From: an uncultured Planctomycetaceae bacterium
GTDB taxonomy: Bacteria > Planctomycetota > Planctomycetia > Isosphaerales > Isosphaeraceae
Direction: 5' to 3'
DNA: 64,000 nt
NCBI GenBank assembly: GCA_963833985.1
Contig: CAWIAD010000002.1
Coordinates: 4,512,001-4,576,000, forward strand
Below, piece by piece: positions 30,292 to 56,108 of this stretch. Every line of letters begins with the position of its first letter. Position 1 is the stretch's first letter. The notes under the pieces are model-generated. The model was not told where the DNA came from and ran no database searches. It saw only the letters and a program-made list of their open reading frames with translations. The position numbers and the translations under genes were made by a program.

Positions 30292-30687
30292 AAGGTTAAC
30301 CCCGAAGCGGCCGCGCGGCCGGCGTGATGCTCTGTGTCTTCATATCACTCAGAAAAATGTCAGCACCCCCGTCCGCTCGTGCCGTGTGAGCGCGATCTTG
30401 CAATAGTGAAGGATAGCACCGGCGGCAAGCCGTGATGGGATCGTCCATCCTCGTTCAGAAAACCCAGTCGCCCAAAGCAGTTGCATCGCCACAAGTTGTG
30501 CCGTCGCGTACCGGCCGCCAACTCACAGGACGGTGCGCATCCATCATCGTCCGTATCCGATACGCGATCCAGTGCGGCGCGGTGTCGCAGCCTGAATGAT
30601 CTCCCGGCACATTCCGCCGTGCCCGTCGCGAGCGGATCGAACCACGAAGTTTTGACATTTCAATGGTCCGACAGCGAGGAGCTGGTC

Positions 30688-33600: not shown

Positions 33601-36600
33601 TTTCCTTCGACGGCCCGGCCGGCAGCGGGCTGGGCGTGAGCGGCGACTGGCAGAGCTATTCCGCACAGGTTTCCGGCAGCGCAGCGATCGAACTCATCGG
33701 CGGCTCCCTGGTTCTCAACGGTCAGCCCCTGCCCGCTGGGACTTACACGATCACGACCGGCCAGGCGACCATCGCGGGAAGTGGAACGAGCACTTCGCCC
33801 AGCTTCTCAGGGACGGTATCACTCTCCTCGAACGGCGACACGATCAACATTGAAGCGAGCGGCGGAAGCTTCTCGGTTGGCGGCAAGCCGCTCGAGACGG
33901 ACGATGAGGCCACGCTCGACCAGTACACCGGGACCATCAACGTGTCGGCCGGCGCAGGAGGTTCCCAATCCGTCAGCCTGAGCGGTTCCGCCGGCAACGT
34001 CCTTCAAGTGACGACCTCAACCGCGACGTTCACAACCGACCAGAACACGCCGATCACATTCGCCCCGAGCATCCATGGCAGCCTGGCCGACACCTACACG
34101 CTAACGGCCAATGCGCCGTCGGGATGGACGGTCACGATCGACAGCAAGGGGAATGTCACCGCAGCCCCCGCACCGGGACTCCAGGGCGGTACCTACCCCA
34201 TCCAGATCATCGCCCAGTCTCAGTCCGATCCCAACCTCGTGGCACAGGCGACTGTGGAAGTCACGATCAAGCCGACCACTCCGGGCATGAGCCTGGGCGT
34301 TGCGTCGGATTCCGTCCTGAGCGTGCCCTTCGATGGTGCCGATCTCCCGACCGGCTTCCGCGCGAGCATTCAGAACCTTGGCCCCGCGCCGGACACCTAC
34401 AACCTGAGCTTCTCCAACGTTCCCGCCGGGTTCAGCGTGCAGACGAGCACATCCAGCGTCACCGTTCCCGCCGGACAGACCGGAATCGTCGGAGTTTATC
34501 TCGTGCCCAACCCCGGCCAGCCCCTCCCGGCGCCTGGCACGCAGCTCTCGTTCACCGTGACCGCCACGAGCAAGACCACCTCGTCAATCACCAAAGCCCA
34601 GAACGTGACCTTCACCGTTCCGGCCATCGACGCGGTTACCGTCACAGCCAGCCCATCCAGTGTGAATACCACGCCCGGTGTGGCCGCCAGCGACACGCTC
34701 ACGATCACGAACGTGGGCAACGTGCCCCAGACCAATATCAGCTTCGCGAGCAGCAATTCTGCCGGGCTCTCCGTCTCCGGACTGGCTCCGCTCTCGCTGG
34801 CGGTCGGCCAGTCGACCACCGAGACCGTCACCTTCACTCCGTCGGCCTCAACGCCCCTGAACAGCATCCTCCAGTCGACCATCACGGCGACTTACGGACC
34901 GACGACATCACCCCAGACCCAGACCCTGAACATGACGGTCGACGTCGTCGTGCCTGGAGCAGCGGCGCTCGCCAACGCAGCGGTCGCGGCCCAGCAGCTC
35001 AGTAACTCAGGGCTGGCCGGGCGCCTGCAAGACCTGAGCACTGCGCTCACCAGCCTGGTGCAGAACCCAACCAGCCCGGTCTACCAGGGACAGGCGCTGG
35101 CCAATCTCGATAGCCTCATCAGCCAGCTCACCAACGATCCGTTCCTCTCCGGGTTCACCTCGGGACTGACCACGGCCCGCACGGCCCTTGCCTCCGCGTC
35201 CACCGCGAGTGCCGTTCAGTCGGCTGTAAGCGGCCTTGGCACCGCGCTCGGCTCGCTGGCGCAGGTGATCAGCGACGACGCCGCACACCAGTTCACGATC
35301 TCGCTCTCGCCCGACCGCAACATCGTCCAGCCCGCGGCGCCCGAGGTCTTCGATATCCTCATCACCAACAACGGTACGGCTGCCACGACCTATGACCTGG
35401 GCATCTCCGGCTTGCCCGCGGGCGTGAGCTCCGCGTTCAGCCAGCCGTCCGTCACGCTTCAGCCCGGGCAGTCGCTCACGGCCGGCAATAGCGCGGTCAC
35501 GCTCACGCTCACCGAGTCCGGCGGCACGCTCATCCCGGCGAACTTCACCATCGCGGCGACGGCCGAGGGCGCCAGCGAAATCACCCAGGGCACTCCCGGC
35601 TTCCTGACCCTGCGCGACTCCTCGATCATCGCCACGGGCATCGTCACCAACCCCGCGTACGTCAGCCCCGGCGGCAAGGTGGACGTCTCTGCGCAGATCC
35701 TGGGAACCGTGAACCAGGCCACGCCGATCTCGGCGTACTATACGGTCACGGATCAGGCCGGAAGCACGCTCTTCACGTCGACCGCAGTGCCGGTCTCGCT
35801 CGCGGTCAATAGCGGCCTGGTCACGGCCGACCTGGGCAACCTGGACACGACCGGGTTCGCCCCGGGAGTCGATTCGATCAGCGTCACGCTGCTGGATGGA
35901 AGCAGCAAGCCGATTCCCGGCGGTTCCACGAGCACCAGTTACCTCATCGGCCAGCCGGTGACGGCCACGCTCTCCACCACGCCGGCCACCGTGCCCACTG
36001 GCTCGGATACGGTCACGACCACACTCTCGGCGACCACGCTGTCCACGTATCCTTCGCCGCTCACCCTCCAGGGCGCCCTGGCCACCCCCGCACCCGGCAC
36101 CTCGGTCGCCCTGTACACGTCGGGCGGCAAGACCTACGCCTACGAGAGCGGCACCGGCGGCATCAACGCCATCGACGTGACCAACGCGGCCAGTCCCCAG
36201 CTCCTCGAGACCTTCGGCCAGAACGAGATCACCAACGGCAAGTTCGGCTTCAACGTCGCGCGGGTGGTCGGCAACGAGCTGCTGGTCGGCACCTCCAACG
36301 GCAACAACGGCAGCGTGTTCAACCTGCTCGTCTACTCGCTGGCGAGCCCGGCCAGCCCGACGCTCGTGAGCAACACCACCATCAATTACCGGTTCCTCAG
36401 CGACCTGCTGGTCAACAGCACCGGCACGGCCGTCTTCGTGCCGACCAATGGCTTCATGTACTTCGGTAGTACCATCTTCCAGGACTTCGGCGATTTCGTC
36501 GCCATCGACCTCACCGATCCCACCCAGCCGGTGCTCGCCAGCGCCCTGTTCACCAACCAGGGCCAGCCCAATGGCGGCAACATGAACCAGTTCGGCGGCG

Positions 36601-39390
36601 TCCTGGTGAACGACCAGATCGCTTACTCGGCCGGACTGGCTCCGGGCGGCAGCACGATCATCGGCAACACCGGGAACCTGCTGGTCGTGAACATCTCCGA
36701 CCCCAAGAACATGTCGCTGATCACCCAGCTCAAGATCCCCGGCACGATCAACATCCTGAATGTGGCCACTTACGGCAACCGCGCCCTGGTGGTTGGAACC
36801 GCGGGCACCGAGTCGAACATCTACAATCCGAACGCCACGGGCGTGGCCAATCACCTCACCCTGACGGTGCTCGACATCACCGACCCGAGCAACCCGCAGA
36901 TACTGGGCTCGACCTTCGTCACGAACGAGCAGTTCCCGCTCGGCGAAGCCGGCGCCAAGACCGACGTGGTCAGCCTGGGCAATGGCGACTTCGCCATCAG
37001 CGACACCGACCAGGGCGGCAACCCCGCCCTGCTGGTCGTCGATCCCAGCAACCCCGGCAACATCGTCGTTTCGGCCGCGCAGGTGCCCAGCGGCGTGCAC
37101 GGCATCACCGTCGCCGGGAACCTGCTCTACGCGACGACCTCCAGCGGCCTTTCCATCTATCAGATCGGTCAGCTCGTGAGCGACCCTGTGACGTTCTCGG
37201 TCAACCTGCCGCCCGGGACCGCGGCGAATATCCCCGCCAGTTCGTTCAATATCGCGCCCACCCAGATCACCAGCGGGACGACTGCCGATACGCTCACGTG
37301 GGATCGCTCGTTCTCGGCGGGCGACACGACGTTCACGTTCTCGTGGCAGTCGAGCATCAGCGGAGTACAGGCGGGGCAGACCACCGCCGTCACCCAGGGC
37401 TCGACCATCGCCTACGTCGCGCAGGGTTCTCCCGGCTCACTGACGCTGCCGGGGACGGCCGTCACCGGCACGCCGATCATCCGCCTGATCACGACCTCAG
37501 CAACCGAACAGCCCGGGGGATCGGCAACCTACGACGTACGGCTTTATAATCCCACAAGCGCCACTGTGACCTATTCACTGAGCGGTCCTGACCTGCCGTC
37601 CGGCGTCAACGGTAACTTCACGTCGGTCACCGTCCCTGCGGACAGCAGCGTGGACACGCCGCTGGTGCTTCACTCGGGAACCTACGCGCAACCAGGAACT
37701 TACCCGTTCAGCGTCACCGCCGATTACCTTCTCTACTCCTCGGACGGTGTGACGCAGCTTGGCGAGTTCAAGGGGTCGGCCTCAAGCTCCCTGGTCATCG
37801 CGGGACCACCCGTCGTCACACCCGATTCCAGCGCACACGGCGTGGTCGTGACGATCTCACCCACCCGGGCCGTGGCCGGGCAGGGCACATCGGCGACCTA
37901 CGTCGTTCAACTGACAAACGTGGGCAGCCTCGACGACCAGTTCTCACTGGAGATCAACGGACTGCCTCAGGGAGTCTATGGCTCGTTCGGCCAGAACGCC
38001 TATAGCCTGGACGTTCCCCCAGGCGCCAGCAACGCACGCGACGTGTCCCTGACCATCACGACAAGCGCCGGGACAGTTCCAGGCGATATCCCCTTCACGG
38101 TCAGGGCCGCGTCGGAGTCGAGCGCCGGGACGCAGGGAACCGCCCAGGCGACACTCAGCGTCGTCTTCGAGCGGGGTCTCGCTGGGCCTCAGCCCCCAGT
38201 CGACCACGCCCGGCGGCAGCCTTCAACTCGACGTCACGAACACGGGAACGCAGACAGACACTTTCAACCTGGCCCTGGCCGGCCCGGCAGCCCTGGTGGC
38301 AAAGCTGGCGACATCCACCGTCACTCTGGCGCCGGGTGCCTCGCAGACGGTTCCGATCACCACCACGGGGGTCGATTTCGCCGTCGCCGGAGCGTTGCCG
38401 CTGACGGCGACAGCCACCTCGCAAGCGAATCCAGGCGTCATGCAGGCAGCCACGTCCGACCTGGCTGTTCCATCTTTCACGGGCATGACGGCGCAGTTCA
38501 CTCCTGCGTCGGTGACGGTCAAGGCACCTGGAACCACGGGCCTGGTTCTTGAGGTGAAGAACACCGGCAACGACGACGACCGGTATACCGTCGCCATCAT
38601 CGGCACCACCGGTCCGGTCACGGCCAGCCTGATCGGCCCAGACGGACTGCCAGCGCAGTCGATCGCGCTCTTCGTGCTGCCTGCTCTGGGCACGGCCGAC
38701 CTTCCACTTCAGGCCACGCTCAACGGTCCCGGCCAGGGCACGATCACCGTCCTCGTCAAGTCGCTCACGACCGGCCAGGAATCCACCGTCGTCGCCACTG
38801 TCTCCGGTCAGAGCACCGTCATCGACGGCCCGCAGGTCCTGCTCGTCCAGCGCTACGGCGTGCACATGAACCCCACGACCATCGTGCTCACCTTCGATCA
38901 GCCCCTCAACCCGACGCTCGCCGACAACGTCAACGAATACCGCTTGCTCGACCCGCAAGGGCACGTCGTACCCATCTCTTCAGCCGTCTACGACGCGGCA
39001 ACCGATACGGTGACGTTGCATCCCCGGAACCGCATCAATCTGCACCGGACGTACAGGCTCACCGTCGTTGGCGTTGGGCCCAACGGCCTGACCGACAGTT
39101 CGGGGCTCCTGCTCGACGGCAAGAAGTCCGGCCAGCCCGGCAGTAACTACGTGACCACCATCAACGGGCGCAACCTGGTGCTGCCGCCGAACTGGAACCC
39201 CGCCTGGTCGCGGAAGGCCCCCGCCCGGAAGACGGCCGCCCGCTTCGCCACCGGCCATCCGCGGCCGTTCCATCGCTCGTCGACGCTCGTGAAGCTCGAT
39301 CCGCCAGGAACCCCGAGGGAACGGTTGGTCCCCGCCCGGCCCCGCCCCGCTCTTCCCCGGCGCTCGCTGCTGTTGCGCAGCCACCATTGA
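30688..39390 (+). CDS. giant (~2,900 aa) surface protein: planctomycete export motif, transglutaminase-like domain, hydrophobic cassette, Ig/NEW3-like repeats, LVIVD-like propeller, C-terminal Ig domain; indels near 30890 and 38167
   Basis: GAGGAG RBS and ATG at 30688. RRLLFESLEERVMLD; GNALDVASLGVALMRTSGIPAQY..HYW; repeated NxGxxxDTYxL; repeated LLV[V/Y]D/IxDP. Three ORF pieces join with single indels. Confidence 0.85.
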
Positions 39391-39563: not shown

Positions 39564-39608
39564 AAGCCCCGAGACTCACCTCGAATGGTGGATCCCGGGG
39601 CTTTTTTT
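39564..39608 (+). terminator. attenuator intrinsic terminator
   Basis: AAGCCCCG(39564-39571)...CGGGGCTT(39596-39603) stem with a T7 run at 39602-39608, just 5' of the leuA ATG. Confidence 0.8.
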
Positions 39609-39635
39609 CGTCCCAACCCGGAAAAGAGCCTGGTC

Positions 39636-41239
39636 ATGAGCACTGCGCAAGAGCCCTCCGCGTCCGCACCGGCGGCCGACCCGAACCGCGTCCGGATCTT
39701 TGATACGACGCTGCGTGACGGCGAACAATCGCCCGGCGCCAGCATGAATCTTGGAGAGAAGCTCGAGGTGGCGCGGGTGCTCTCCGGACTGGGCGTGGAT
39801 GTCATCGAGGCCGGCTTCCCGATCGCCTCGCAAGGGGACTTCGAGGCGGTGCGGGCCATCGCCGGCGAGATCACCGGCTCGACCGTCTGCGGCCTGCGCG
39901 CTGCAACGAGAAGGACATCGACCGTGCCTGGGACGCCGTCAGGTACGCGCAGACCCCGCGCATCCACGTCTTCCTGGCAACCTCGGCCATCCACCGCGAG
40001 CACAAGCTGCGCATGACCCGGCGCAGATCATCGAGCGCGCCGTCGCCAGCGTGCGCAGGGCCAGAAGTTACTGTGCCGACATCGAGTTCTCTCCCGAGGA
40101 CGCCGCGCGGACCGAGCTCGATTTCCTCTGCGAGGTTGTCGAGGCGGCCATCGAGGCCGGCGCCACCACCGTCAACATCCCCGACACGGTCGGCTACGCG
40201 ACGCCCACGCAGTACGCGGCCGTGATCCGCACGCTCAGAGAGCGCGTGCCGAACATCGGCCAGGCGGTCGTCAGCACGCATTGCCATGACGACCTGGGCC
40301 TGGCGGTGGCCAACAGCCTGGCCGGTGTCGAGGCTGGGGCCCGGCAGGTCGAGTGCACGATCAACGGCATCGGCGAACGTGCCGGCAACGCCGCGCTCGA
40401 GGAGATCGTCATGGCCATCAAGACACGCCACGATTACTACGGCGTGACCACCGGGATCAAGACCGAGCGCCTCTACCCCGCCAGCCGGGTCCTGTCGACG
40501 ATCACCGGGCTAGCGGTCCAGCGGAACAAGGCCATCGTGGGCCGCAACGCCTTCGCCCACGAGTCGGGCATCCACCAGGACGGCATGCTCAAGGAGCGGT
40601 CCACCTACGAGATCATGCGCCCGAAGACGTGGGCGTGCCCCGGACCGACCTGGTTCTGGGCAAGCACTCCGGCCGGCACGCGCTGCGCGAGCGGGTCATC
40701 GAGATGGGTTACAACCTCACCGAGGAGCAGATCGAGGTGCTCTTCAACGATTTCAAGGCCCTGGCCGACAAGAAGAAAGAGGTCTACGACCAGGACCTGC
40801 TGATTCTCGTCGAGAAGCACATGGAAGACATTCCCGCGCCGTGGCAGCTCCTCGGCCTGCACACCACGGCCGGCACCAGCGTGCTGCCCACGGCCACGGT
40901 CTCCATCCGCCGGCCCGACGGCGAGGTCGTGCAGGACGCGGCCATCGGCGACGGCCCCGTCGACGCCATCTTCAAGGCCGTCGAACGCGTCACGGGAGTG
41001 CACGCCAACCTGCACGAATTCGTCGTCCGCAGCGTGACCCAGGGCAAGGACGCGCAGGGCGAGGTGACGCTCGAGCTGGAGGTGGAAAGCGACGACCGCA
41101 GCTTTCGCGGCCGCGCCGCCTCCACCGACATCATCGAGGCATCGGCCCTGGCATACCTGAACGCCGTGAACGCGATCCAGACCCACAAGGAGCGCGGCCA
41201 CGTCCGCGAGGTCGTCGGCCGCCCGGCGCCGGGGCGTGA
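39636..41239 (+). CDS. leuA: 2-isopropylmalate synthase; four apparent single-base deletions (~39897, ~40021, ~40622, ~41224)
   Basis: [49 protein letters not shown], and regulatory domain GDGPVDA...STDIIEAS. Confidence 0.95.
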
Positions 41240-41377
41240 TGAGGCAGTCTCGAGCCTCTTGATGGCGATGGCAAAGGTGAGGCATTTCGCATATGCTGGT
41301 TGCTCGACGCCGGCCCCATCCCAGCCTCCCGCCTGGACGTCTTCGCGAGGAGCCGATGTCTCTTCCCGGGTTGGTCC

Positions 41378-41839
41378 ATGAGTAGAAAGCGACACCGGGC
41401 ATCGCCCAGAGTCAAAACAGAAAGAACCGAGCACACACCGAGGTCATTCCTGCGGGCGGCGACCCAACGAAGGGAGGCGGCATCATTCCTGTTCAGCAGC
41501 GGCATTTACCTAATGGACTCCATCTACCTCGCCGGATACGCAGCCGAGTGTTCGCTCAAGGCGGTGATCCTGTCCAGATCGCCGGTCTCAAAGAGAGACG
41601 GCGTACTCGAAGAGATTAGCTCCGGATCTCGGGGACATAACTTTGACTTCCTCGCGGACATTCTCAGGCAAAAGAACGTTGAGATACCAAGTCCGGTGAC
41701 CGAAAGCCTCGAGCGGGTTAACAAGGTATGGTCCACGGACTTGAGATATCGAGGATCTCAAGTCCACCCCCGAGTTGCTCAGACGATCATTGAGGCTATC
41801 AGACTGATCGTCGACTGGGCCGAGAGGAGTGCAATATGA
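41378..41839 (+). CDS. HEPN-domain protein
   Basis: YLAGYAAECSLKA, GHNF and WSTDLRY match the HEPN E..LKA / H / RY pattern. Visibly lower GC than the flanks. Confidence 0.7.
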   Translation: MSRKRHRASPRVKTERTEHTPRSFLRAATQRREAASFLFSSGIYLMDSIYLAGYAAECSLKAVILSRSPVSKRDGVLEEISSGSRGHNFDFLADILRQKNVEIPSPVTESLERVNKVWSTDLRYRGSQVHPRVAQTIIEAIRLIVDWAERSAI

Positions 41840-42150
41840 ATGGCTGGGAGAATAAGAAGACGGCCGAAACCCGCAAGCTTGAGGAACATTTCCGCAAGAC
41901 GTTTCCCAGGACCGATGCGTACCGCTTCAATTCCGCGTCAATCAGGGTGAGGGTTATCGACGATCGTTTTGAGGGCAAATCGATGGCGGAACGGGAAGAT
42001 ATGGTGATGCCACTTCTCGAGAAACTCCCTAAGAGGATTCGAGAAGATGTGCTCATGCTATTAAAGCTTGCGCCAAGCGAACTCGACACTCCGAACGCGC
42101 AAATGCTCATTAACGCTGAGTTCGAGCATCCTCTTCCTTCGCGTCTTTGA
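41836..42150 (+). CDS. small BolA-like or degenerate MNT-like protein
   Basis: IRVRVIDDRFEGKSMAERED...LLKLAPSE. ATGA overlap with the HEPN gene and GAGGAG RBS. Confidence 0.7.
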   Translation: MNGWENKKTAETRKLEEHFRKTFPRTDAYRFNSASIRVRVIDDRFEGKSMAEREDMVMPLLEKLPKRIREDVLMLLKLAPSELDTPNAQMLINAEFEHPLPSRL

Positions 42151-42828: not shown

Positions 42829-44204
42829 ATGCCCTGTCTGTCTTCAAGGGAGCTCGTGCGAATCGCGCTGGGGGCCCGCGCCGACCAATTTCAATCCGCG
42901 CATCTTGAGCTGTGTGAACGATGTCAAAGCAGCCTCGACTCGATCCGCTTGCTCGTCCAGAGACTGGGCCACGCCCATACCCGATTCAACCACCAGCACG
43001 AAGAAGCCCGTGCGCGATTGCTGGCGAGTTTGCCGGATGCGTGGCCGCGGTCCCTGCCCGCGAAGCGGTGGAGAGCCTACTCCCGCACGATTGGAGCATT
43101 CACGATGAGACAGAAACTCGCCCTGGGAAGTGCCGGCATGGCTGCCGTGCTGACCGTTTACGTCGTCTGGTTCGCGACCGTCGCGAAGCCGATCTACGGC
43201 ATGGACGCGATGCCGGAAACGATTCGCAACGCGAAGTCATACGATTACGCGATGACCACCGAGATGCGGCTCCCCGGAGAGGCAGGCAAGCCGCCCGTCA
43301 TCGCGGAGATGCTGGGGCACTGCTACTGGGTTGCGCCGGGTCGTACCGGGTCGAGACGCTCTTGAAAAAGAGCGCCCTGGACCAGGACCTGGTGATGATC
43401 TTGCCGGCCGGCAAACCGGGTGTGGTGATTGACCGGAAGCGGAAATCTTACATACGTCAGCCGGCGCGCCTGGGCTACTTCTCGCCGCTCATGGCCCTGG
43501 ACAAGCTGAGTACCTTCTCCGGCCATGCCGACCGCGATCTCGGTACGCGGCAAATCGAGGGCAAGCAGGCCAGGGGCTTCGAGATCGAGGCCCGCAAGAT
43601 TGATCCGGACTCTTACTCCGGCTCGATGGAGATCTGGCTCGACGCCGCAACCAACCTGCCCCTGCTGCTCCGTTACGAGCTGAAGGGGGCAAGCGCTCCT
43701 GGCACCATCCGGATGACGGATTTCCACTGGAACGTTGATCTGGACCCCAAGCTCTTCGATCCCACGCCCCCGGAAGGGTTTGCCGAGGACGTGCGCGCCG
43801 CGTCACCGCTGGACGAACAGGTGAAGAAGATCACGGAGGGACTGAAGGTCTACGCCAGGTACAGCGGTGGGCACTATCCCCGCGTCAAGATGCTTTACGG
43901 AGACGTCACGCGCGATGAGCTTGCCAGGCTCAGCGGCGCACCGTACCCGCCCCGGACAGAGAAGGACTTTAGCGATCCCCGTATCGCGATGATTCATAAC
44001 GCGACCTGGGGCTTCTCGCACATCAACGTGATCCTCCGCGAAAACGCCGATGCCGCCTATCACGGGAAGACGGTTGGACCGGAGGACAAGACGAAAGTCC
44101 TCCTGCGATGGAAGCTTGACGACGGTACCTATGAAGTGATCTACGGCGACCTGCGGTCCGAGGCCGTGCCGGCCGGACGCCTGCGTGCCCTGGAAGGCCG
44201 GTAG
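42829..44204 (+). CDS. zinc-finger anti-sigma factor with TM helix and periplasmic LolA-like domain; indel near 43335
   Basis: HLELCERC (HxxxCxxC), a TM helix, then EIWLDAATNLP and FHWNVDLDPKLF. Starts 3 nt after the sigma gene. Confidence 0.8.
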
Positions 44205-44213
44205 CCGGCCGCG

Positions 44214-45093
44214 CTACTCGGGAACGATGCCCCCGTGCGGCGACATTCCCATCGCGCTGAAGATCTGTTCGCGCCGCTGGAGGTACGCGGCGGAATTCAG
44301 GTCGCGGGGTCGGGGAAGATCGATCTCCACCACTTCCTGGATTGTCGCCGGGCGGCGGCTCATGACGAGCACGCGCCCGGCAAGCTGGACCGCCTCGTCG
44401 ATATCATGAGTGACAAAGAGAATGGTCTTGCGCTCGGCTTCCCAGATCCGCACCAGGTCGTCGCGCATCTTGAACCGGGTGATGTAGTCGAGCGCCTCCG
44501 AAGGGCTCGTCCATGTAGAGGATCTCGGGGTTCGCGGCCAGCGCCCGGGCGATCTCGACCCGCTGCCGCATCCCGCCCGAGAGTTCGCGGGGATAAGACC
44601 GCTCGAACCCGGAGAGCCCGACCATCTCGACATAGTGCTCGATCACGCTGGCTCGTTGCGGCCGAGGAATCCGGTCCAGGCCAAAGCCGATATTCTCGCG
44701 AACCGTGAGCCAGGGGAAGACGCCGCCCTCCTGGAATATGAAGATCCGCCGCCGGTCGGGCCCATCGATAGGTTCTCCCTCGACGAGAACCTCGCCCCGG
44801 CTCGCGCGGACAAATCCGCCCAGGAGGTTCAGAAGCGTGGTCTTGCCACAGCCCGACGGACCAACGATGCAGACGAACTCCCCCTGGCGGACCTCGAGGT
44901 TGATTCGCTCCAGCACATGGGTGAGATCGTCCCGGCTCAGGCTGGGATAGCTCATCCAGAGCTCGCGGACGGAGATGGCCAGTGGTCCGGTCTTGCGGTC
45001 GTCTGCGTTCGGAGGTCCCATGGTCGTGGTGCGAGAAAGTCCCGGTTCAGCGCTCTGCGGGGCCTGGCGGATCACTCTCGGAGAAAAGGCCAT
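44214..45093 (-). CDS. ABC transporter ATP-binding protein, NitT/TauT type; indel near 44498
   Basis: GPSGCGKTT, LSGGMRQR, MDEPF, FVTHDIDEA. Confidence 0.92.
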
Positions 45094-45103
45094 GACAGGT
45101 CCC

Positions 45104-45898
45104 TCAGCGGTTTCCGTATCCCCAGCTAACCTCGTCGAACCGCTCGAGTCGGCGCACCACCAGGTCGAGGGCCAGGCCGATCAGGCCGATCACGACCATG
45201 CCTGCGACCACCAGGTCGTAACGCTTGCCGGCGTTGCGGGCATCGACGATCAGGTAGCCCAAACCCGAGTTCACGGCGATCATCTCGGCGGCGACCACGA
45301 CCAGCCATGCGATTCCGAGCGCGATGCGGATGCCCGTGAGGATCTGTGGCAGGGCCGCCGGCAGAATCACTCTGCGGAACAGCCGCATCCGTCCCAACTC
45401 GAAATTATTCGCCGCCCTGAGGTAGACCGGCTGCATGTTCTGCACGGCCGCCGTGGCCGAGACCGTGATCGGAAAGACGCTGGAAAGAAAGATCAGGAAC
45501 ACCGGCGCGGCGTCCGAAACTCCAAACCAGAGGATGGCCAGGGGAATCCAGGCGATCGGCGAGATCGGTCTGAGGACCTGGATCAGGGGGTTGAGCGCCT
45601 GATAAGCCGGCCGGAACCAGCCCAGAAACAGGCCCATCGGCACGCCGACCAAAATCGCCAGGAAGAACCCCCACGTCACCCGAAACAGCGAAGCGACGAC
45701 GTACTTCAGCAGCAGACCTTTGTGGGCTAGCTCGCCGATACCGAGCACGACCTCCCAGGGGCCGGGAAACAGATCATTACGCGCGAACCCGACGATGCCT
45801 TCCCAGCCCAGGAGCACCACGGCCGCCACCGCGCACGGGAGAACCAGCTCGGCCCGCGGTCGCCACGACGGCCGCAGCGCGTTTCGGTCGAGGTTCAA
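45104..45898 (-). CDS. ABC transporter permease, NitT/TauT (SsuC-like)
   Basis: LRPISPIAWIPLAILWFG, ILPAALPQI, VVVAAEM. TTG start overlaps the SBP stop. Confidence 0.92.
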   Translation of the reverse strand: MNLDRNALRPSWRPRAELVLPCAVAAVVLLGWEGIVGFARNDLFPGPWEVVLGIGELAHKGLLLKYVVASLFRVTWGFFLAILVGVPMGLFLGWFRPAYQALNPLIQVLRPISPIAWIPLAILWFGVSDAAPVFLIFLSSVFPITVSATAAVQNMQPVYLRAANNFELGRMRLFRRVILPAALPQILTGIRIALGIAWLVVVAAEMIAVNSGLGYLIVDARNAGKRYDLVVAGMVVIGLIGLALDLVVRRLERFDEVSWGYGNR

Positions 45899-46941
45899 GG
45901 AGCGCCCTCCCAGGCGTAAGGTTGAATGGTTGTCTCGTCAAGAACAAACGAGGCGTCCGCGTAGTCGTCAAAGCGGGCGGTGCCATTGAGGATTCCCGCT
46001 TCCTTTCCGAGCTGTTCGATCTCCTCAAAATCCTTGCGAACCAGAGAGAGGTGCGTGTATTTGACCCGATCGGGTGGCTTGCTGAGGACAAACCTCAGCA
46101 GCTGCGGATCTTGATGGTAGTACCGGATTGCCGAGAAATCGGCCGCCTGCATGCGGTGCGCCATATCGCGGTCGAGCCACTTGCCGCTTTTCGCAATCCC
46201 ATCGACGAGGCGCTGAACATCAGCGCGCCGAGTCTGGATCACGCGGTCAGAGACGGCCAGCACGCAGGAAATGAAGTCAGGCCAGACGTCCTTGGTCATG
46301 AACAGAACGCGACCGTAACCATCCATCTCGGTTTGCGCCATGAACGGCTCTCCCGAGATCACCGCGTCAACGGAGCGCGAGTAGAGCGCAGCGGGCATGT
46401 CGGGCGGGGGCAGCTCCAGGAGCGTGGCCTCGCTCATCTTCATGCCTCGCTCCCTGAAGGCTTTGAAGAGAATGAGGCTCTGGTTGGAGAACCGGTTGGG
46501 GATGGCGATTCTGCGACCGCGCAAGTCCTCGATCTTGTGGATTATCGAATCCTTGTGCACCATCATGGTCGTCCCGTCGCGGTGCCCCAGGTAGACAATC
46601 TTGATCGGCACCCCTTGCTCGCGGAGCGACATTGCCAGCGGGGCGAGGATGAATGTCGCTTCCAGATCGTTCGCCAGAAACGTCTCCTTGAGCTCTGGCC
46701 AGCCATTGAACCGGATCGGATCGAAGATCCCGTCGCCACTCATTTTCTCGTTGATGAAGTTGGTCACCGGGCACGTCAGGTGGCAGGTGACCGGGATGAA
46801 GCCGACGCGGAACGGCGAGCCAGCACGACTGCGCCCTTCGAGAGTGCGGTCGAGCAGACCCAGGTTCATGGTCATGTGAAGCAGGCTGATGACCGCGACC
46901 CAGCCGAGTGAGCCGAGGAGCACGGTCCGTCGCATCGACAT
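45895..46941 (-). CDS. ABC transporter substrate-binding protein, NrtA/CmpA/SsuA-like
   Basis: RVGFIPVTCHLTCP, FNGWPELKE, GHRDG, IAIPNRFS, PPPDMP, GEPF, DVWPDFISCVL. Confidence 0.88.
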   Translation of the reverse strand: MSMRRTVLLGSLGWVAVISLLHMTMNLGLLDRTLEGRSRAGSPFRVGFIPVTCHLTCPVTNFINEKMSGDGIFDPIRFNGWPELKETFLANDLEATFILAPLAMSLREQGVPIKIVYLGHRDGTTMMVHKDSIIHKIEDLRGRRIAIPNRFSNQSLILFKAFRERGMKMSEATLLELPPPDMPAALYSRSVDAVISGEPFMAQTEMDGYGRVLFMTKDVWPDFISCVLAVSDRVIQTRRADVQRLVDGIAKSGKWLDRDMAHRMQAADFSAIRYYHQDPQLLRFVLSKPPDRVKYTHLSLVRKDFEEIEQLGKEAGILNGTARFDDYADASFVLDETTIQPYAWEGAP

Positions 46942-46974
46942 CGCGAGCCTTTCGTTTGAACGATTCCTTCCGGA

Positions 46975-48045
46975 TCACCCTTGGAGCGGCAGAGACCGCC
47001 GGCCAAAGAGGAACAGCACGTGCAGGGCCATGTTCAAGACGATCACACCGAGGGCAGCCAGCGCCAGCTCCTGGCTGGCGAGGTGCTCGTGATAGCACGT
47101 CCAGCAGTACTGGAAAAGGCACAAGAGAGCTACGGTACCCAGTATGATGCGTCGCGAGATGAAGCGTGAGACCAGGCTGCCCAGCGGGCCGCCCACGGCG
47201 ACGACCGGGGCCGCCGCCAACCAGTAAGGAAACACATCGACGATCGTCGCTCGGCTGGACGGCCAGCAGGCCGCCGCCAACAAGGAGCATCCTGCGCCAA
47301 CCACGGAGGTAAACGCCATCAGGATGACCGAACTCGGAATGGCCACCTTGATGTCGGTGTGATAGAGCAGGACGAGTGTGCCGTAGAGCAGAATGTCGGC
47401 GCCGACGCCTATCACCGAAGCGAGCAGTCCGCCAAGTGCGCCCACGACAAAGCCGATCACCGGGTCGCCCGCGAAGTACGTCCGCGAGAGCCCCTGGTTA
47501 GCCACGATGCCTCGCATCCGGACCAGAAGCAACAACCCAAAGCTGGCATAGACGACCGAAAAGAGCACCTTCACCGCGCTGTCCGCGACGTTCGGGGCCA
47601 CCAGCCCCATCCCCAGCGGCATCGCGAAGGCGGATCCCAGGAGCGCGAATCTTAGGATCCGCCACTCGATGCTCCTCCCGCGAGTGACAATATAAACGCT
47701 GGCCGATACCATGCCGATCGACTGGATGGCCAGGCTGAAGGTTCTGCCAAGCCGAGCCGGTTCGTTGAACACGTAAACGAGCAAGGGGAAGCCGATTGTC
47801 CCGCCGGCAACCGGGCTCGAGCCGCCGACGAACGAGCCTCCCGCCATCGCCAGGGCAATGCTCCAGTGGTCGCGCACCACGGACCAGAGACCAGCGCCCT
47901 GCACAATCACGAGCCAGGCCGTGTAGAACAGCAGGAGCCAGATCGCGAAGATCCGCCGCGCCGGCCCTCCCGCGGATGAGCTGCCGCGGGAAGGGACCGA
48001 GGTGGGCGAGACGACCGGTGCTCTGGTCACGAGAGCACCACTCAT
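46975..48045 (-). CDS. TSUP / TauE-SafE family membrane transporter
   Basis: Multi-TM protein with GSSPVAGGTIGFP, FSLAIQSIGM, GVGADI, SVILMAFTS, AAAPVVAVGGPLG. Confidence 0.8.
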   Translation of the reverse strand: MSGALVTRAPVVSPTSVPSRGSSSAGGPARRIFAIWLLLFYTAWLVIVQGAGLWSVVRDHWSIALAMAGGSFVGGSSPVAGGTIGFPLLVYVFNEPARLGRTFSLAIQSIGMVSASVYIVTRGRSIEWRILRFALLGSAFAMPLGMGLVAPNVADSAVKVLFSVVYASFGLLLLVRMRGIVANQGLSRTYFAGDPVIGFVVGALGGLLASVIGVGADILLYGTLVLLYHTDIKVAIPSSVILMAFTSVVGAGCSLLAAACWPSSRATIVDVFPYWLAAAPVVAVGGPLGSLVSRFISRRIILGTVALLCLFQYCWTCYHEHLASQELALAALGVIVLNMALHVLFLFGRRSLPLQG

Positions 48046-48434
48046 TTGTGAAGAATCTGCTTCTGATTGCCAAGGATTTCACGCTGGTTGGCGACGATCT
48101 CCCGTTGCCCTTCCAGAAGCTTATCCTGGTTGGCCTGAATGTGCTCCTGGTTCGCCAGGATCGAAGCCTGGTTCGCCACCGTCCGATCGAGCTTGTCCTG
48201 GTTGGCCAGGATCGCAGCCTGGTTGGCCTCGATGCTCGCCTGGTTCGCCAGCACCTTGTCGAGCTTCTTCTGGTTGTCCCGGATCGACTCCTGGTTCGCC
48301 AGGATCGCGGCCTGATTGGCGGCGATCTTGTCGAGCTTTGATTGGTTCTTCTCGATCGACTCCTGGTTCGCCAGGATCTTCTCCTGGTTGCTGAGAATCG
48401 ATTTCTGATTGGCGATCACGTCATCGGCTGCCAT
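48042..48434 (-). CDS. 130-aa heptad-repeat coiled-coil protein (IxxNQxx)
   Basis: GGAG RBS. Fifteen [I/V/T]xxNQxx heptads. Stop overlaps the TauE start (ATGA). Confidence 0.85.
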   Translation of the reverse strand: MAADDVIANQKSILSNQEKILANQESIEKNQSKLDKIAANQAAILANQESIRDNQKKLDKVLANQASIEANQAAILANQDKLDRTVANQASILANQEHIQANQDKLLEGQREIVANQREILGNQKQILHK

Positions 48435-48542
48435 GGAGAGTGCTCCGTTCACGAAGAAAAAACGGGGAAAAGCCTGGCCAGGCGGGACCCGTTCGGGTTC
48501 CGCGCTCATTCTCCCGCCGGCCAGTCAACAACCTGCGCCCGA

Positions 48543-49805
48543 TCAATGTCCAGTTGCGTTGGGTCTGGTCTGGGAGATCGCAGTGGAAGGCTTCGTTCCC
48601 GTTGCCGGGTACTGGTACTCATCCTGGAGGATCAGGACCAGCGACTGCTCCAGCTCGTCCGGCTTGAAACCGAATGGGCCGCGGCCGTTCTTGAAAGCGA
48701 CCTTGCCGTTGCGGTCGATCAGGTAGAACCGGCCGGGCATGCCGCTGTAGCGGGCTCCCACCGCGTCGTCGATCGTGTCGACCAGCAATGGAAAACCCAG
48801 GCCCAGCAACTTCCCGCAGCGCTGGGCCACGGCGACCCGTTCGGCGTAGGTGCCCGGCTGCGCCGTGGTCACGCCCACGTGATCGTTGCTTTCCATCCGC
48901 CAGCCGTCGGTGGGATGGGCTTCGCGCACGTAGACCATCAGAAAGTTCGCGCGGTCGGCGTAGCGGCGGTGCAGCTTCTCGAAATTGCCGGCCATGCTGC
49001 GGAACGGCCCGCAGGTGAAGTTGCCGAAGATGAGCACGATCGGTTTGGGACCAACTTCTTTCGACAGCGTGAGCTGCTTCTTGCCATCGTATGTCTTGAG
49101 CGTGAAATCGGGTGCGGGCTCGTCCAGTTTCGGTCCGGGCTGAAGCGAGCCGATCTCCTGGCGAAACAGGCCCCGGATGAGCATGGCCTTGGTGGGACGG
49201 TCGCCGCGCGACATGCCGCGTGCCGGCGCGGGGAAGGCCGTCTCCAGGTCGGCACGCGACAGGAAACCCAGGCCGTCGGAGTCGGTGGCGCGGAAGAAGG
49301 CCTCGAGCTCCTCGCGCGTCACCTTGCCGTTGCCGTCACGGTCCAGCCGCGAGAAGAGGTACGCGCCGGGCGGGGTCGGTGCATCGCTCCTGGAGAAATC
49401 GAAATCCGTGCCGGTGAGCGCACCGTCGCGGTCGCGATCGAGCCGGGCGAAATCGTGGTCGAGACCCGGAAACTCCGCGCGCGTGATGCGGCCGTCGCCG
49501 TCTCGGTCATAGCGTTTGCGGGTGCTGTCCCAGGTGAACCGCGTCTGGGTGACGGCGGTCCGGAACCAACCGTAGTTCGGTCCCATGGCCTCGTCGTCCA
49601 GGATGGCCGTGTACATATCGAGCCATTCGGGACGATCCGGCCAGGACTCCTTGAGGACCCTGGCGATCTCGTCGGCCTCGGTGGCCGCCGGAGCGCCCGT
49701 GGGTGTCGCGGCCCCCTTTGGCTCGTCGGCGGACGCGGGCCACGCCGCAACCGCCGCGCCGAGAAGCCATGTCAGCATCTTGGTCCATGGTCTCGAAACA
49801 GGCAT
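48543..49805 (-). CDS. exported EF-hand plus iodothyronine-deiodinase-like (thioredoxin-fold) protein
   Basis: Signal peptide; four DxDxDG/DxDxxG loops; FGNFTCGPF, VYVREAHPTDGW, LVDTIDD, YSGMPGRFYLID, GRGPFGF. Confidence 0.85.
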   Translation of the reverse strand: MPVSRPWTKMLTWLLGAAVAAWPASADEPKGAATPTGAPAATEADEIARVLKESWPDRPEWLDMYTAILDDEAMGPNYGWFRTAVTQTRFTWDSTRKRYDRDGDGRITRAEFPGLDHDFARLDRDRDGALTGTDFDFSRSDAPTPPGAYLFSRLDRDGNGKVTREELEAFFRATDSDGLGFLSRADLETAFPAPARGMSRGDRPTKAMLIRGLFRQEIGSLQPGPKLDEPAPDFTLKTYDGKKQLTLSKEVGPKPIVLIFGNFTCGPFRSMAGNFEKLHRRYADRANFLMVYVREAHPTDGWRMESNDHVGVTTAQPGTYAERVAVAQRCGKLLGLGFPLLVDTIDDAVGARYSGMPGRFYLIDRNGKVAFKNGRGPFGFKPDELEQSLVLILQDEYQYPATGTKPSTAISQTRPNATGH

Positions 49806-49874
49806 GAAGAAACTCCTTGAGGAAGGTCGTGGTTGTAATCGGATCGGAAGCGGAGTGAATCGCTCCGGACCGCG

Positions 49875-50339
49875 TCAACGTCGCAGCATGTCCCGGAAAA
49901 CCGTGACCGAGGGACTGGTGCCCACCAGGTAATACACGGTCTTCTCGATCGGTTTGCCCTTGTTCCCGGCGAGCGTGAGCTTGACCCGCACGCTCAGGTT
50001 CGCGTCGCGCGGTTGCCCCTCGCCCAGCAGTTGATAATCCAGCAATCGGACGCCGCCCTGCCAGTCGAAGTCCTGCACCGTCATGGGAGGTGCGGCCGCG
50101 GCAAGCGATCCGGGGGCATCCCCGTTTTTCCAGCGATCCAGTGCCGTCACCAGCGCGTCTCGTGCGCGGGACGAATCCACCGCGTGGGCCGCGCTGCTCC
50201 CGCAGCCGGAAAACGCCAGCAGCGAGAGCGCGGCCAGGCAGGCGGCGAGAATGCCCAGCGAACCGTACAGGGCCAGTGTGCGTTCTGCCCTGACGGACGA
50301 CATGGACTGACTTGTCAGGCCCGATTTCGTGTTCCACAT
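49875..50339 (-). CDS. lipoprotein of the DUF1559-associated type
   Basis: Lipobox-like FSGC, then ARDALVTALDRWKNG..QDFDW..YLVGTSP. Confidence 0.75.
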   Translation of the reverse strand: MWNTKSGLTSQSMSSVRAERTLALYGSLGILAACLAALSLLAFSGCGSSAAHAVDSSRARDALVTALDRWKNGDAPGSLAAAAPPMTVQDFDWQGGVRLLDYQLLGEGQPRDANLSVRVKLTLAGNKGKPIEKTVYYLVGTSPSVTVFRDMLRR

Positions 50340-50358
50340 GAAGCTGCCCCTTCCTGTA

Positions 50359-51313
50359 TCAATAGCTGTCTGCGCTGATCACTTCGCCGCCGGAAATGGT
50401 GCCAAGCACCGCCAGACGGCCAGGTTGATCGAATCTTTCGTGAACCGCACCGAGCCGTCCCCCAGCAGCAGGTTCACGCCACCCGGGTGGTGGCTGCTCG
50501 GCGGCATCACGGCGCGGAGCGAAAGGAAGAAACCGCACGACCGAGAGTTCGGACCCGAGACATGAGTGAAGATATGCTGCCCGCACAGCCAGGCGCACCC
50601 ATGAACAGGGGAAACTGGTTCTGCAAGTTCGTGATATCCACGGCCTGGCATTGCTGAAAGGCCTGGTCGGGCGTCGTGGGAGCCAGCGGTGAGAAGAAGA
50701 CGTCGGCGACCGGGCTGACGATCGCGTTGTTGCCGTCGGCCAGGACCCGCTCGCTGAAGAACCCGGTGTTCGACAGCCCGTCGGTGATCGCGGCGAACTT
50801 CGTGGCACTGTCGCCGTGGAATACGCCGTTGGGCGTGGGCAATCCCACGTTCGGCCCCACGGGCGACTGCCAGACGATGCCACTGCCCATGTCGGCCATG
50901 TAATTCGTCTGCGCACCCAGGGAAGGCAAGGGATCGCTCAGGTCCGAGGGGCAGACGAACTGGCTGACGACCGTGTACATCGCGGTCGTGTTCGTGGGGT
51001 CCTGGTAGTTGAAGGCGCAGTTCACCGAGTTGTAGATGCCCGTCTGCTCCATGAGCGGCAAGAGCATGGTGAGCGCGGAGAGCTCCGTGACGTTGAACAC
51101 CATGTCGGCCCCGGGCAGGGCCCCGCGCGACTCGGCGTAGTTCTGGCACGCCAGCCCGATCTGCTTGAGGTTGTTCACGCACTGGATCCGCCGCGCAGCC
51201 TCGCGGGCCGATTGTACGGCTGGCAGCAGGAGAGAGATGAGGACAGCGATGATGGCGATGACCACCAGCAGCTCGATGAGCGTGAAACCTCGGTGCGTGG
51301 AACGAATACGCAT
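50359..51313 (-). CDS. DUF1559 family prepilin-type protein; indels near 50597 and 50405
   Basis: [77 protein letters not shown]. Confidence 0.92.
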
Positions 51314-51657
51314 AAGCAACTCCTTGAGAATGATCGAAGGAATGAGAAGACTTTGATAACAATGCGCGCTAATAATGAGGGGAGTACGGATCGCGCAGGA
51401 TCTGCGCCGGCGCTGATGACAGCGGCCATCAGAGCCGTGGCGTTTGCGCGAAGGCCCAGGGTTTCCGGCACGGGTCGGACCGCCGCGGCAGTCGAGCGCC
51501 GCTCGAGTGCTCGGGGACGGATCCTGACGTACAGGCACCCGCGCACGCGGGACCACCGCGAGCGCCAGAAGATGTCCGCATCTGCACCGGACGCCGCCAG
51601 CACGCATCGAGCCTGCGGCGCAGCGCGCAGCCGGCCATACGCTCCTGACAGGGTTCC

Positions 51658-55241: not shown

Positions 55242-56108
55242 TCACCAGGAGAGCGTTTCGGGGAAGAACTCGGCGATCAGCTCGCGGTAATAGGGCTCGA
55301 GGGCAGCGACATCGGGCGGCTGGTGGCCCTTCGAGTAAAGATCGTAGGGGTTGAACTTGCGGACCCACTCCATCTCCCGGCGGTCGCGGTCATTCATCAG
55401 GCAGGTGTACTCTCCCTCGCGGTGGGCGGGGTAGAAGGAGTGGTAGCGGATCATGGCCAGCGCCTCGTCGGGCAGGTAATTCTTGACCACGTGGTACAGA
55501 TATTCATCGTGGCCCCACGAGAGGTCCACCTTGTCGAGACCGCAGCCCGGCTCATAGATACCGTTCTCGGACTGGTAGGCGGGCACGGAGGAATCGGGAT
55601 TGTCGCGAAAGAACTCGTGGAAGACGATCTTTTCCGAGTAACGGCAGCCAACCGGGAAGGTATCGCCCACAACGGCCCACTGCGGCTCGCCCCAGAGGCA
55701 GAGGATCTTGCCGAGGTCGTGGATCAGCCCCGTAAGGATGAACCAGCGGGGATGGCCATCGGCACGAATCGCCTCGGCCGCCTGCATCAGATGTTCGATC
55801 TGTGTCAGTTCGGTATCCGGATCGCTGTCGTCGACCAGGGTGTTGAGATACTCCATGGCGTCCCAGATTCCCATCCTGCGGCGCGACAGGGAGAGGAACT
55901 CGCGCTTCTTGGCCCGCACGAAATCCACCGTCTGGGAGGTGTGGTTGAGATAGTAGAACTCGCGCACGCCGGGGCGGACGCTGTCGCCATAGTCGCGAAA
56001 CGCCGCTCCTTCGCCGGGCGCCGGGTAGCGCTCGACCAGGAACGACTCCCAATCGTCAAGGTGTTCCAGCGGTTCAGGTTGGGACGGGCCGGATGAGTTC
56101 GCTGCCAT
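55242..56108 (-). CDS. inositol oxygenase (MIOX) family HD-domain di-iron enzyme
   Basis: [63 protein letters not shown]. Confidence 0.93.

Follow-up and report, generated by a model that had tools for sequence, protein, structure and literature searches.

Asparagine-layered coiled coils as free-standing bacterial proteins and transcription-activator inputs: a candidate halide-responsive element

Asparagine at core position d (N@d) of parallel trimeric coiled coils is a known structural motif of trimeric autotransporter stalks, in which [I/V]xxNTxx heptads are stacked in series. In such trimers, R@g-D@b brackets are common and as many as 37 consecutive N@d layers are known (Brucella BMI_I1862; PMC13580157), and N@d layers followed by a stammer, i.e. 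a three-residue insert, have been solved in OMP100 (PMC4786415). Halides are bound by both N@d and Q@a layers; each N@d layer destabilises GCN4 trimers and makes their folding chloride-dependent, and N@d layers specify register and trimer state (PMC12933892). These layers have so far been treated as structural parts of adhesin and viral stalks, whereas here they would make up an entire family of proteins and serve as the only input domain of a transcription activator. The protein in question, hereafter the rod, is encoded in the window, i.e. the whole 64,000-nucleotide stretch that was analysed (positions 4,512,001 to 4,576,000 of contig CAWIAD010000002.1, assembly GCA_963833985.1, from an uncultured Planctomycetaceae bacterium). 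The explanation we favour, at roughly even chances, is that this stand-alone, all-helical rod, likely trimeric with a halide in its Asn layers, is the halide-responsive element of a halogen-handling gene system.

The rod gene (48042-48434, minus strand) encodes 130 amino acids, in agreement with the 15-NQ repeat protein quoted in the original prediction, which was made from the letters of the window. It comprises 16 N@d-type layers (15 Asn-Gln, or NQ, and one GQ), at residues 9, 16, 23, 30, 40, 47, 54, 64, 71, 78, 88, 95, 102, 109 (GQ), 116 and 123, with spacings of 7, 7, 7, 10, 7, 7, 10, 7, 7, 10, 7, 7, 7, 7 and 7. The three LDK/LDR inserts initially proposed are present as three decads, better read as K-L-D stammers at residues 33-35 (48330..48338), 57-59 (48258..48266) and 81-83 (48186..48194, all on the minus strand), K-L-D fitting g-a-b in the N@d register; the first is predicted to form the g-a-b bracket of its stammer decad. 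Thirteen NQ-to-NQ spacings are of 7 or 10 residues, and none of 20,000 composition shuffles exceeds three. Codon use (GC content at third positions of 0.82, in line with the 0.73-0.84 of neighbouring genes), a ribosome-binding site read from the sequence (GGAG at 48443..48446, minus strand, 8 nt ahead of the ATG), and the status of the rod as the sole locus with at least three such heptads in succession in the 10.2-Mb window genome indicate a genuine gene. Its 72-bp units differ by 3-6 synonymous codons per pair, and the repeat is thus maintained at the protein level.

AlphaFold2 predicts the rod monomer as one helix (residues 2-129, pLDDT 97.7), a model silent on the oligomeric state, and a Foldseek search of this single helix against the PDB gives no match, which is uninformative. 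No signal peptide or other domain had been seen in the original prediction, and indeed the entire protein is repeat, with no Pfam or NCBIfam family above cut-off; DUF7262 (PF23923; 19.4 bits, E 0.0015) falls below its gathering score of 27, and the single phmmer match in the PDB (E 0.064) is taken as chance. The best PDB profile match, albeit weak (E 0.003), is the N-terminal domain of YbgF/CpoB (PDB 2XDJ), which contains an IxxNQxxL..V..xQ-like stretch and belongs to a trimeric protein (PMC4458516). Unlike the rod, YbgF/CpoB is periplasmic, TPR-fused and involved in cell division, and the resemblance is probably convergent. Compared with autotransporter stalks, including the stammer-containing OMP100, the rod likewise has I@a/N@d heptads in series, stammer decads and a basic-g/acidic-b bracket, but it carries Gln instead of Thr at e, a frequently hydrophobic b, and stammers every 17 or 24 residues. 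It works like an autotransporter N@d stalk and is no autotransporter, as it lacks the signal peptide, head domains and C-terminal barrel anchor of such adhesins. As 37 consecutive layers are already known, the layer number of the rod is not new and its fifteen layers are no record; what differs is that the repeat is used by itself, as a free protein, and also as the input of a transcription activator. We regard it as likely that three rods associate in parallel, with Ile occupying a and Asn occupying d, and likewise as likely that each Asn layer holds a halide.

The rod belongs to a widespread family. A phmmer search retrieves 45 homologues, close in length to the rod and without exception unnamed or hypothetical, ESM Atlas places its relatives in unnamed clusters only, and a DNA pattern for four NQ at 7-10-7 spacing matches at least 120 genome stretches. 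Among the matches listed from this pattern search, on which the following family descriptions are based, the family extends over about ten phyla (Acidobacteriota, Planctomycetota, Armatimonadota/Abditibacteriota, Gemmatimonadota, Myxococcota/Deltaproteobacteria, Verrucomicrobiota, Actinomycetota, Bacillota, Bacteroidota and Methylococcales). The closest homologues of the window rod are from two Isosphaeraceae loci (L057, L060), which, together with the DUF1559 gene described below, point to a planctomycete host. Nearly all members are free-standing, as had been noted for the window rod; only a few residues precede the first NQ, little follows the last one, mostly an ILAK-like tail, and lengths are 53-168 amino acids (median 72, for 115 members with a Met start). 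Short forms of about 36-50 amino acids without a decad, which are easily missed, are also found, and Myxococcota rods are longer and Lys-rich, with 17-residue repeats. Position a is Ile in 93% of 737 heptads, and the decad insert has K/R in 78%, L in 98% and D/E in 80% of 224 decads, while the complete conservation of N and Q is by construction, as both were fixed in the search pattern. The 24-residue super-repeat holds for the window rod but is not constant in the family, where decads lie 24 residues apart in 49/102 intervals and 17 apart in 42/102, some members having no decad at all. The distribution is patchy (2 of 40 relatives, and 4/200 and 5/300 genomes in phylum samples); in the planctomycete sample of 300 genomes, five of the ten profile matches (G322, G329, G365, G432, G527) were dropped as not being NQ genes, and the G580 locus is the same as L071 and hence not independent. 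No match is found among plasmids, and the sole match in viral contigs (L126:3001-3078), an exact NQNQILLNQFYL repeat unrelated to the family, is left out of all counts. A 1,977-codon open frame over the homologue in G013 is read as a GC-rich shadow frame, because a ribosome-binding site and an ATG directly precede the repeat. In the literature, judged by titles and starts of abstracts and with incomplete coverage of key papers, no paper on the rod family was found, nor any description of its free-standing form, its use as a sigma54 input or its halogen-gene company.

Fusions of the repeat to transcription activators bear on its function. Sigma54 enhancer-binding proteins (FhlA/NtrC/PspF class) share a PF00158 AAA+ domain with a GAFTxA loop and a Fis-type helix-turn-helix (HTH), and all of these features are found in the fusion P0059 (PF00158 at 238 bits; PF02954). 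A search of longer proteins gives 15 matches, from which six clusters (P0056-P0061, 13 members) are counted as fusions, leaving out P0049, P0053 and P0055; P0047, P0050 (deiodinase), P0054 (ABC), P0051, P0048 and P0052 look like single-record read-through or frameshift products and were rejected. In the six clusters, some of which databases label 'formate hydrogenlyase transcriptional activator', 55-65 residues of NQ repeat are joined straight to the AAA+ domain and HTH, so that this bare coil is the entire N-terminal input, in place of a receiver, GAF or PAS domain. When 119 Blastocatellia-class genomes are scanned (15 candidates scored per genome, match at E <= 1e-150), eight matches are obtained, i.e. 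six NQ fusions and two halogenase fusions. Each of the six NQ fusions lies directly upstream of a stand-alone NQ gene with near-identical repeats, beyond which lie an outer-membrane barrel gene and, on sufficiently long flanks, MFS, TGA-split AhpD and TPR/FG-GAP genes. Two of the six loci also contain a homologue of vanadium haloperoxidase (E 1e-100). Upstream of all seven activator-adjacent NQ genes scanned, a -24/-12-like element (GG-N10-GC) scores 9-10 out of 12 against the consensus for such promoters, a score of at least 9 being reached in 14/113 other NQ upstream regions and in about 8% of shuffles; a sigma70 promoter and terminator scan stays at chance level. A pattern for fused NQ ends, which proved too strict, yields no fusion in 61 genomes.

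In a tree of 20 AAA+ domains, with the ten activators of the window genome outside as a distant root, the six NQ-input and four halogenase-input activators form one clade (100/100), within which the halogenase-input ones are nested (100/99). This topology indicates that a sub-clade exchanged its NQ input for a halogenase-like domain. Such activators are divergent to a stand-alone NQ gene in L039, L265 and L283; PltM/CtcP-like halogenase domains fused to a sigma54 activator, of about 880-900 codons, occur at L039:6835-9504, L264, L265, L267 and L283. Does the coil sense a halide, or simply another protein? The rod could be part of an ion-independent protein-protein switch, binding the NQ segment of the activator or some other partner and regulating in trans, as PspA does with PspF, with core anions being merely structural. 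The near-identity and adjacency of fused and free repeats at all six fusion loci would suit such a switch, as would the known capacity of N@d layers to specify register and trimer state. However, most stand-alone copies are seen in activator-less contexts, including the window genome, and the replacement of the coil by a halogenase-like input suggests that the signal is a small molecule, so that we regard this possibility as rather unlikely. The fusions also bear on the anion sensing or storage first proposed for the rod: sensing is backed by them, while bulk storage of common anions such as chloride or nitrate is rejected on capacity, which we estimate at about one site per 24 residues.

The halide-responsive reading is based on this use as an activator input and on the recurrence of several halogen-chemistry families around the rod gene. 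Neighbourhoods were compared at 82 flanked loci besides the window (L004-L085, from the matches listed; 40 more with short flanks were left out), with a simple script calling the genes within the flanks retrieved (about 6 kb, or less where contigs were short), after which the genes were clustered. FG-GAP/UnbV-like genes are found at 29/82 loci, UnbU-like genes at 17, AhpD/CMD genes at 15, halogenase-like genes at 11, radical SAM/Asn-synthase-like genes at 7, deiodinase-family genes at 5 and transglutaminase-like genes at 4, and 48 of the 70 non-Myxococcota loci have at least one recurring gene. An Asn-synthase-like, RaSEA-like radical SAM and halogenase-like trio recurs at L011, L023, L028, L042, L043, L063 and L078, and AhpD/CMD genes split by TGA at CxxU are seen at L006:4962-5525, L039, L065, L021, L030 and G000:C2:5648949, the window genome having one such gene together with a tRNA-Sec. 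The recurring flavoprotein has tetracycline 7-halogenase (E 2e-52) and PltM as closest solved relatives, although halogenase activity is not assured, since several copies have WxWxLR instead of WxWxIP. A halogenase-like gene is present in 29 of 60 genomes carrying the rod family (NQ genomes) versus 18 of 300 planctomycetes, and in L022 the rod lies between two Trp-halogenase-family genes (325 and 335 bits).

Another link leads to enediyne biosynthesis. E3-E5 are core enediyne proteins (PMC10760148), and the production of dynemicin and of sungeidine requires iodide (PMC11350584). Rod loci share with the E4/E5 (UnbV/UnbU) part of the enediyne cassette an RnfD-like gene, 28-31% identical to annotated enediyne proteins and UnbU, that adjoins UnbV_ASPIC (FG-GAP/UnbV-like) genes as in an enediyne cluster; in contrast, no enediyne polyketide synthase is found in the fetched flanks of rod loci with UnbU/UnbV-like genes, and cassette homologues are absent from the window genome. 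The enediyne cassette is reportedly able to make iodinated products, according to work by Gui and colleagues in 2024. Among 50 NQ genomes chosen for taxonomic spread from the 120 matches listed, 39 have UnbU-like genes, versus 11/200 and 23/300 in the phylum samples, where all four and all five true NQ genomes have UnbU. In addition, 20 of the 23 planctomycete genomes with UnbU also encode the importer binding protein described below. An UnbU-like gene with two FG-GAP/UnbV-like genes occurs at L012, L027, L033, L047, L067, L071, L074, L079 and L083.

The original prediction had also proposed a coupling to anion transporters. Linkage of homologues to NitT/TauT-type ATP-binding cassette (ABC) genes is borne out, a binding protein or permease lying within about 6 kb of the rod at 27/82 loci (12 Acidobacteriota, 11 Planctomycetota, 3 Armatimonadota/Abditibacteriota and 1 Opitutaceae), compared with a background of 0.25% of the window genome (G000), a single genome, within 6 kb of such a permease. 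An obligate coupling is not: in the reciprocal test, the rod accompanies the binding-protein motif at 12 of 120 metagenome loci overall and at 3 of the 16 with at least 5 kb on both sides, which makes it optional for the importer and excludes an obligate importer subunit. The ATGA overlap of rod stop and TauE start was correctly described for the window; as a family trait, TauE coupling is rejected, with no tblastn match at the 82 other loci and one divergent copy directly after the rod at L018 (1/82).

The importer binding protein is itself unusual. At the first Cys of its PVT-(C/U)-HLT-C-P motif, 32 of 120 metagenome matches (L129-L248) carry an in-frame TGA, and in the 31 distinct TGA forms the reading frame is open on both sides. 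Downstream hairpins reach -19.9 +/- 2.4 kcal/mol in these 31 forms versus -11.8 +/- 5.1 in 83 Cys forms, at a GC content of 0.61 and 0.55, respectively. One TGA is found in 22/32 planctomycete matches and in 4/33 matches in NQ genomes, and the C/U-HLT-C protein is encoded in 32/55 NQ genomes versus 30/300 genomes of the planctomycete sample. Judging from these hairpins, which resemble selenocysteine insertion sequences, we consider it likely an uncatalogued selenoprotein family, the window copy being the Cys form. SaoX and SaoB of the SAO system are likewise NMT1-like ABC binding proteins with Cys or selenocysteine (Sec), but the window protein scores 40 bits for SaoX (cut-off 300) and has no match to SaoB (NCBIfam), and its type has a U/C-x3-C motif, not listed in the accessible part of a 2026 review (PMC13188914). 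In a second subfamily, recognised by a GLT/GIT-C-EA motif, the C-terminal tails are rich in Cys (e.g. CPCCTRCC); its genes lie after or around the rod at L030, L038, L041, L043, L057, L060, L070, L071 and L083 (planctomycetes and one Opitutaceae).

Could the ligand of the rod be something other than a halide? The rod might bind a non-halide anion linked to the importer (selenide/sulfide, thiocyanate, nitrate, bicarbonate or sulfite) or serve a soft-metal uptake system; this would be compatible with Cys/Sec and His at the binding-protein site, with a Sec-type AhpD/CMD and a metal-binding HMA-like gene among the rod neighbours, with TauE next to the rod in the window and L018, and with the sulfatases that flank one fusion locus. 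The nearest solved structure to the binding protein, 3UN6, is a zinc-bound protein with an unassigned ligand, and kin to bicarbonate and nitrate binders (PMC13592312). Several separate halogen-chemistry families nevertheless recur around the rod gene, and the rod itself cannot bind metal, as it has no Cys and almost no His or aromatics; we thus hold this alternative for improbable, if worth keeping in mind.

A structural scaffold, i.e. a higher-order bundle or filament (tetramer or larger, N/Q-lined) organising the membrane importer or an UnbU/UnbV complex, would fit the hydrophobic b position, the length range of about 36 to 168 amino acids and the Q+N content of 26% of residues. A trimer is, however, favoured by the K-L-D bracket and by Ile at a, the use as an activator input would go unexplained by a scaffold, and the rod is found at only 3/16 well-flanked importer loci, which renders this explanation quite improbable. 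Finally, a ribosomal peptide (RiPP) precursor modified by neighbouring halogenase, radical SAM, Asn-synthase-like or transglutaminase-like enzymes seems hardly credible despite a small gene beside such enzymes at 7-11/82 loci (transglutaminase-like at 4/82), given the uniform repeat without a leader/core split, the strict 7/10 spacing, the fusion into a transcription activator, and a composition (F+Y 0.2%, no W or C) with essentially no aromatic for a flavin halogenase.

How would a halide-responsive rod work? Many N@d layers and stammers may leave the trimer marginal unless a halide fills its core. In the fused form, halide-driven assembly would bring the AAA+ domains together, thereby controlling their oligomerisation and switching the operon on. 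The stand-alone copy, encoded by the first gene of the operon, would sequester halide or pair with the activator in mixed coils as feedback, or do both. As ligand we prefer a scarce halide (iodide or bromide), for which a high-affinity importer and deiodinase/UnbU genes would be most meaningful, although chloride is also possible. The fullest version of this proposal, in which a bare Asn-layer coil assembles only with a scarce halide and switches sigma54 activators, with the free copy as a buffer, as part of a hitherto undescribed system for taking up and using iodine or bromine (selenocysteine importer, halogenases, haloperoxidase, deiodinase-like proteins and UnbU/UnbV) of soil and freshwater Acidobacteriota, Planctomycetota and others, is tentative, and we would sooner expect it to fail in some part than to hold entirely. 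Since the layers occur both as a free protein and as an activator input, the idea that halide-dependent folding serves as a signal can be tested directly, on two small soluble proteins. The rod gene also marks a set of halogen-related genes that recurs in poorly cultured soil bacteria, among them a selenocysteine importer and UnbU/UnbV homologues found outside enediyne clusters, and may thereby help in approaching microbial halogen cycling and the role of enediyne E4/E5.

Several observations weigh against a halide-sensing trimer. Position b is often hydrophobic (L 48%, I 12%) in family heptads, for which a Q@a/I@d/L@e register or a higher oligomer would also fit, and in 23 broken layers N is kept nine times and Q eight, i.e. 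N is no better conserved than Q; both features leave room for a Q@a register or a larger bundle. The zinc in the nearest structure means that the importer cargo could be a metal or another anion. Importer linkage is set against a background from one genome, and related genomes are not independent, for which reason p-values are omitted. No recurring gene is found at 22 of the 70 non-Myxococcota loci, and all 12 Myxococcota-like loci (L015, L031, L045, L046, L048, L052, L058, L059, L069, L072, L073, L080) have a different context linked to cyclic nucleotides (cNMP), their rods lying ahead of a small gene of cNMP-like type and of a gene for a TLC-like/HEAT/cNMP membrane protein. Among the planctomycetes sampled, most genomes with the halogenase-like gene lack a rod (2 of 18 have one), and UnbU is present without a detected rod in 7/11 and 18/23 genomes of the phylum samples. 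As for the window, its genome gives no match for UnbU, halogenases or haloperoxidase, no NQ-type activator was found in it, and the region upstream of its rod scores 6/12 for a -24/-12 promoter. The halogen link of the window copy therefore rests on the adjacent deiodinase-family gene and on family habits, and, with no NQ-type activator found, its rod would hold halide in the cytoplasm, placed between a deiodinase-family reductase on one side and the importer/TauE genes on the other.

In the window, the rod is part of a run of minus-strand genes. The run is headed by a DUF1559 gene with a shifted frame (50379..51362) and continues with a small lipoprotein-like gene (49875..50339, no Pfam match), found again in L005, L030, L038 and L060. 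Directly upstream of the rod, with a gap of 108 bp, lies a gene for an exported protein with an EF-hand (48543..49805), which belongs by its profile scores to deiodinase family NF038285 (520 bits, cut-off 250; PF00837 E 3e-25) and is a Cys form (GNFTCGPF), deiodinase activity being only predicted. The rod is followed by the TauE/SafE-family membrane protein (46975..48045; PF01925 E 1.2e-17), the NMT1/SsuA-like ABC binding protein (45895..46941; GFIPVT-C-HLT-C-P, the Cys form), a NitT/TauT-type permease (45104..45898), and an ABC ATPase spread over two frames (44214..45093, i.e. 44404-45093 plus 44214-44633). Genes split across frames also include an isopropylmalate-synthase-like gene (39585-41381) and an anti-sigma-like gene (42829-44204), and together with the ATPase and DUF1559 genes suggest indel errors in the assembly. 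A look for sequencing runs matching 44400-50400 lists none, which is neutral as evidence. Further away, a HEPN-domain gene (41300-42150, plus strand) is overlapped by a small gene with a weak BolA-like match, possibly a toxin-antitoxin-type pair. A Myo-inositol oxygenase family gene (PF05153 E 3e-112) lies at 55242-56108 on the minus strand, and a 2,629-amino-acid surface-type protein with repeated beta-rich domains is encoded on the plus strand at 30663-38552, continuing in another frame to 39390.

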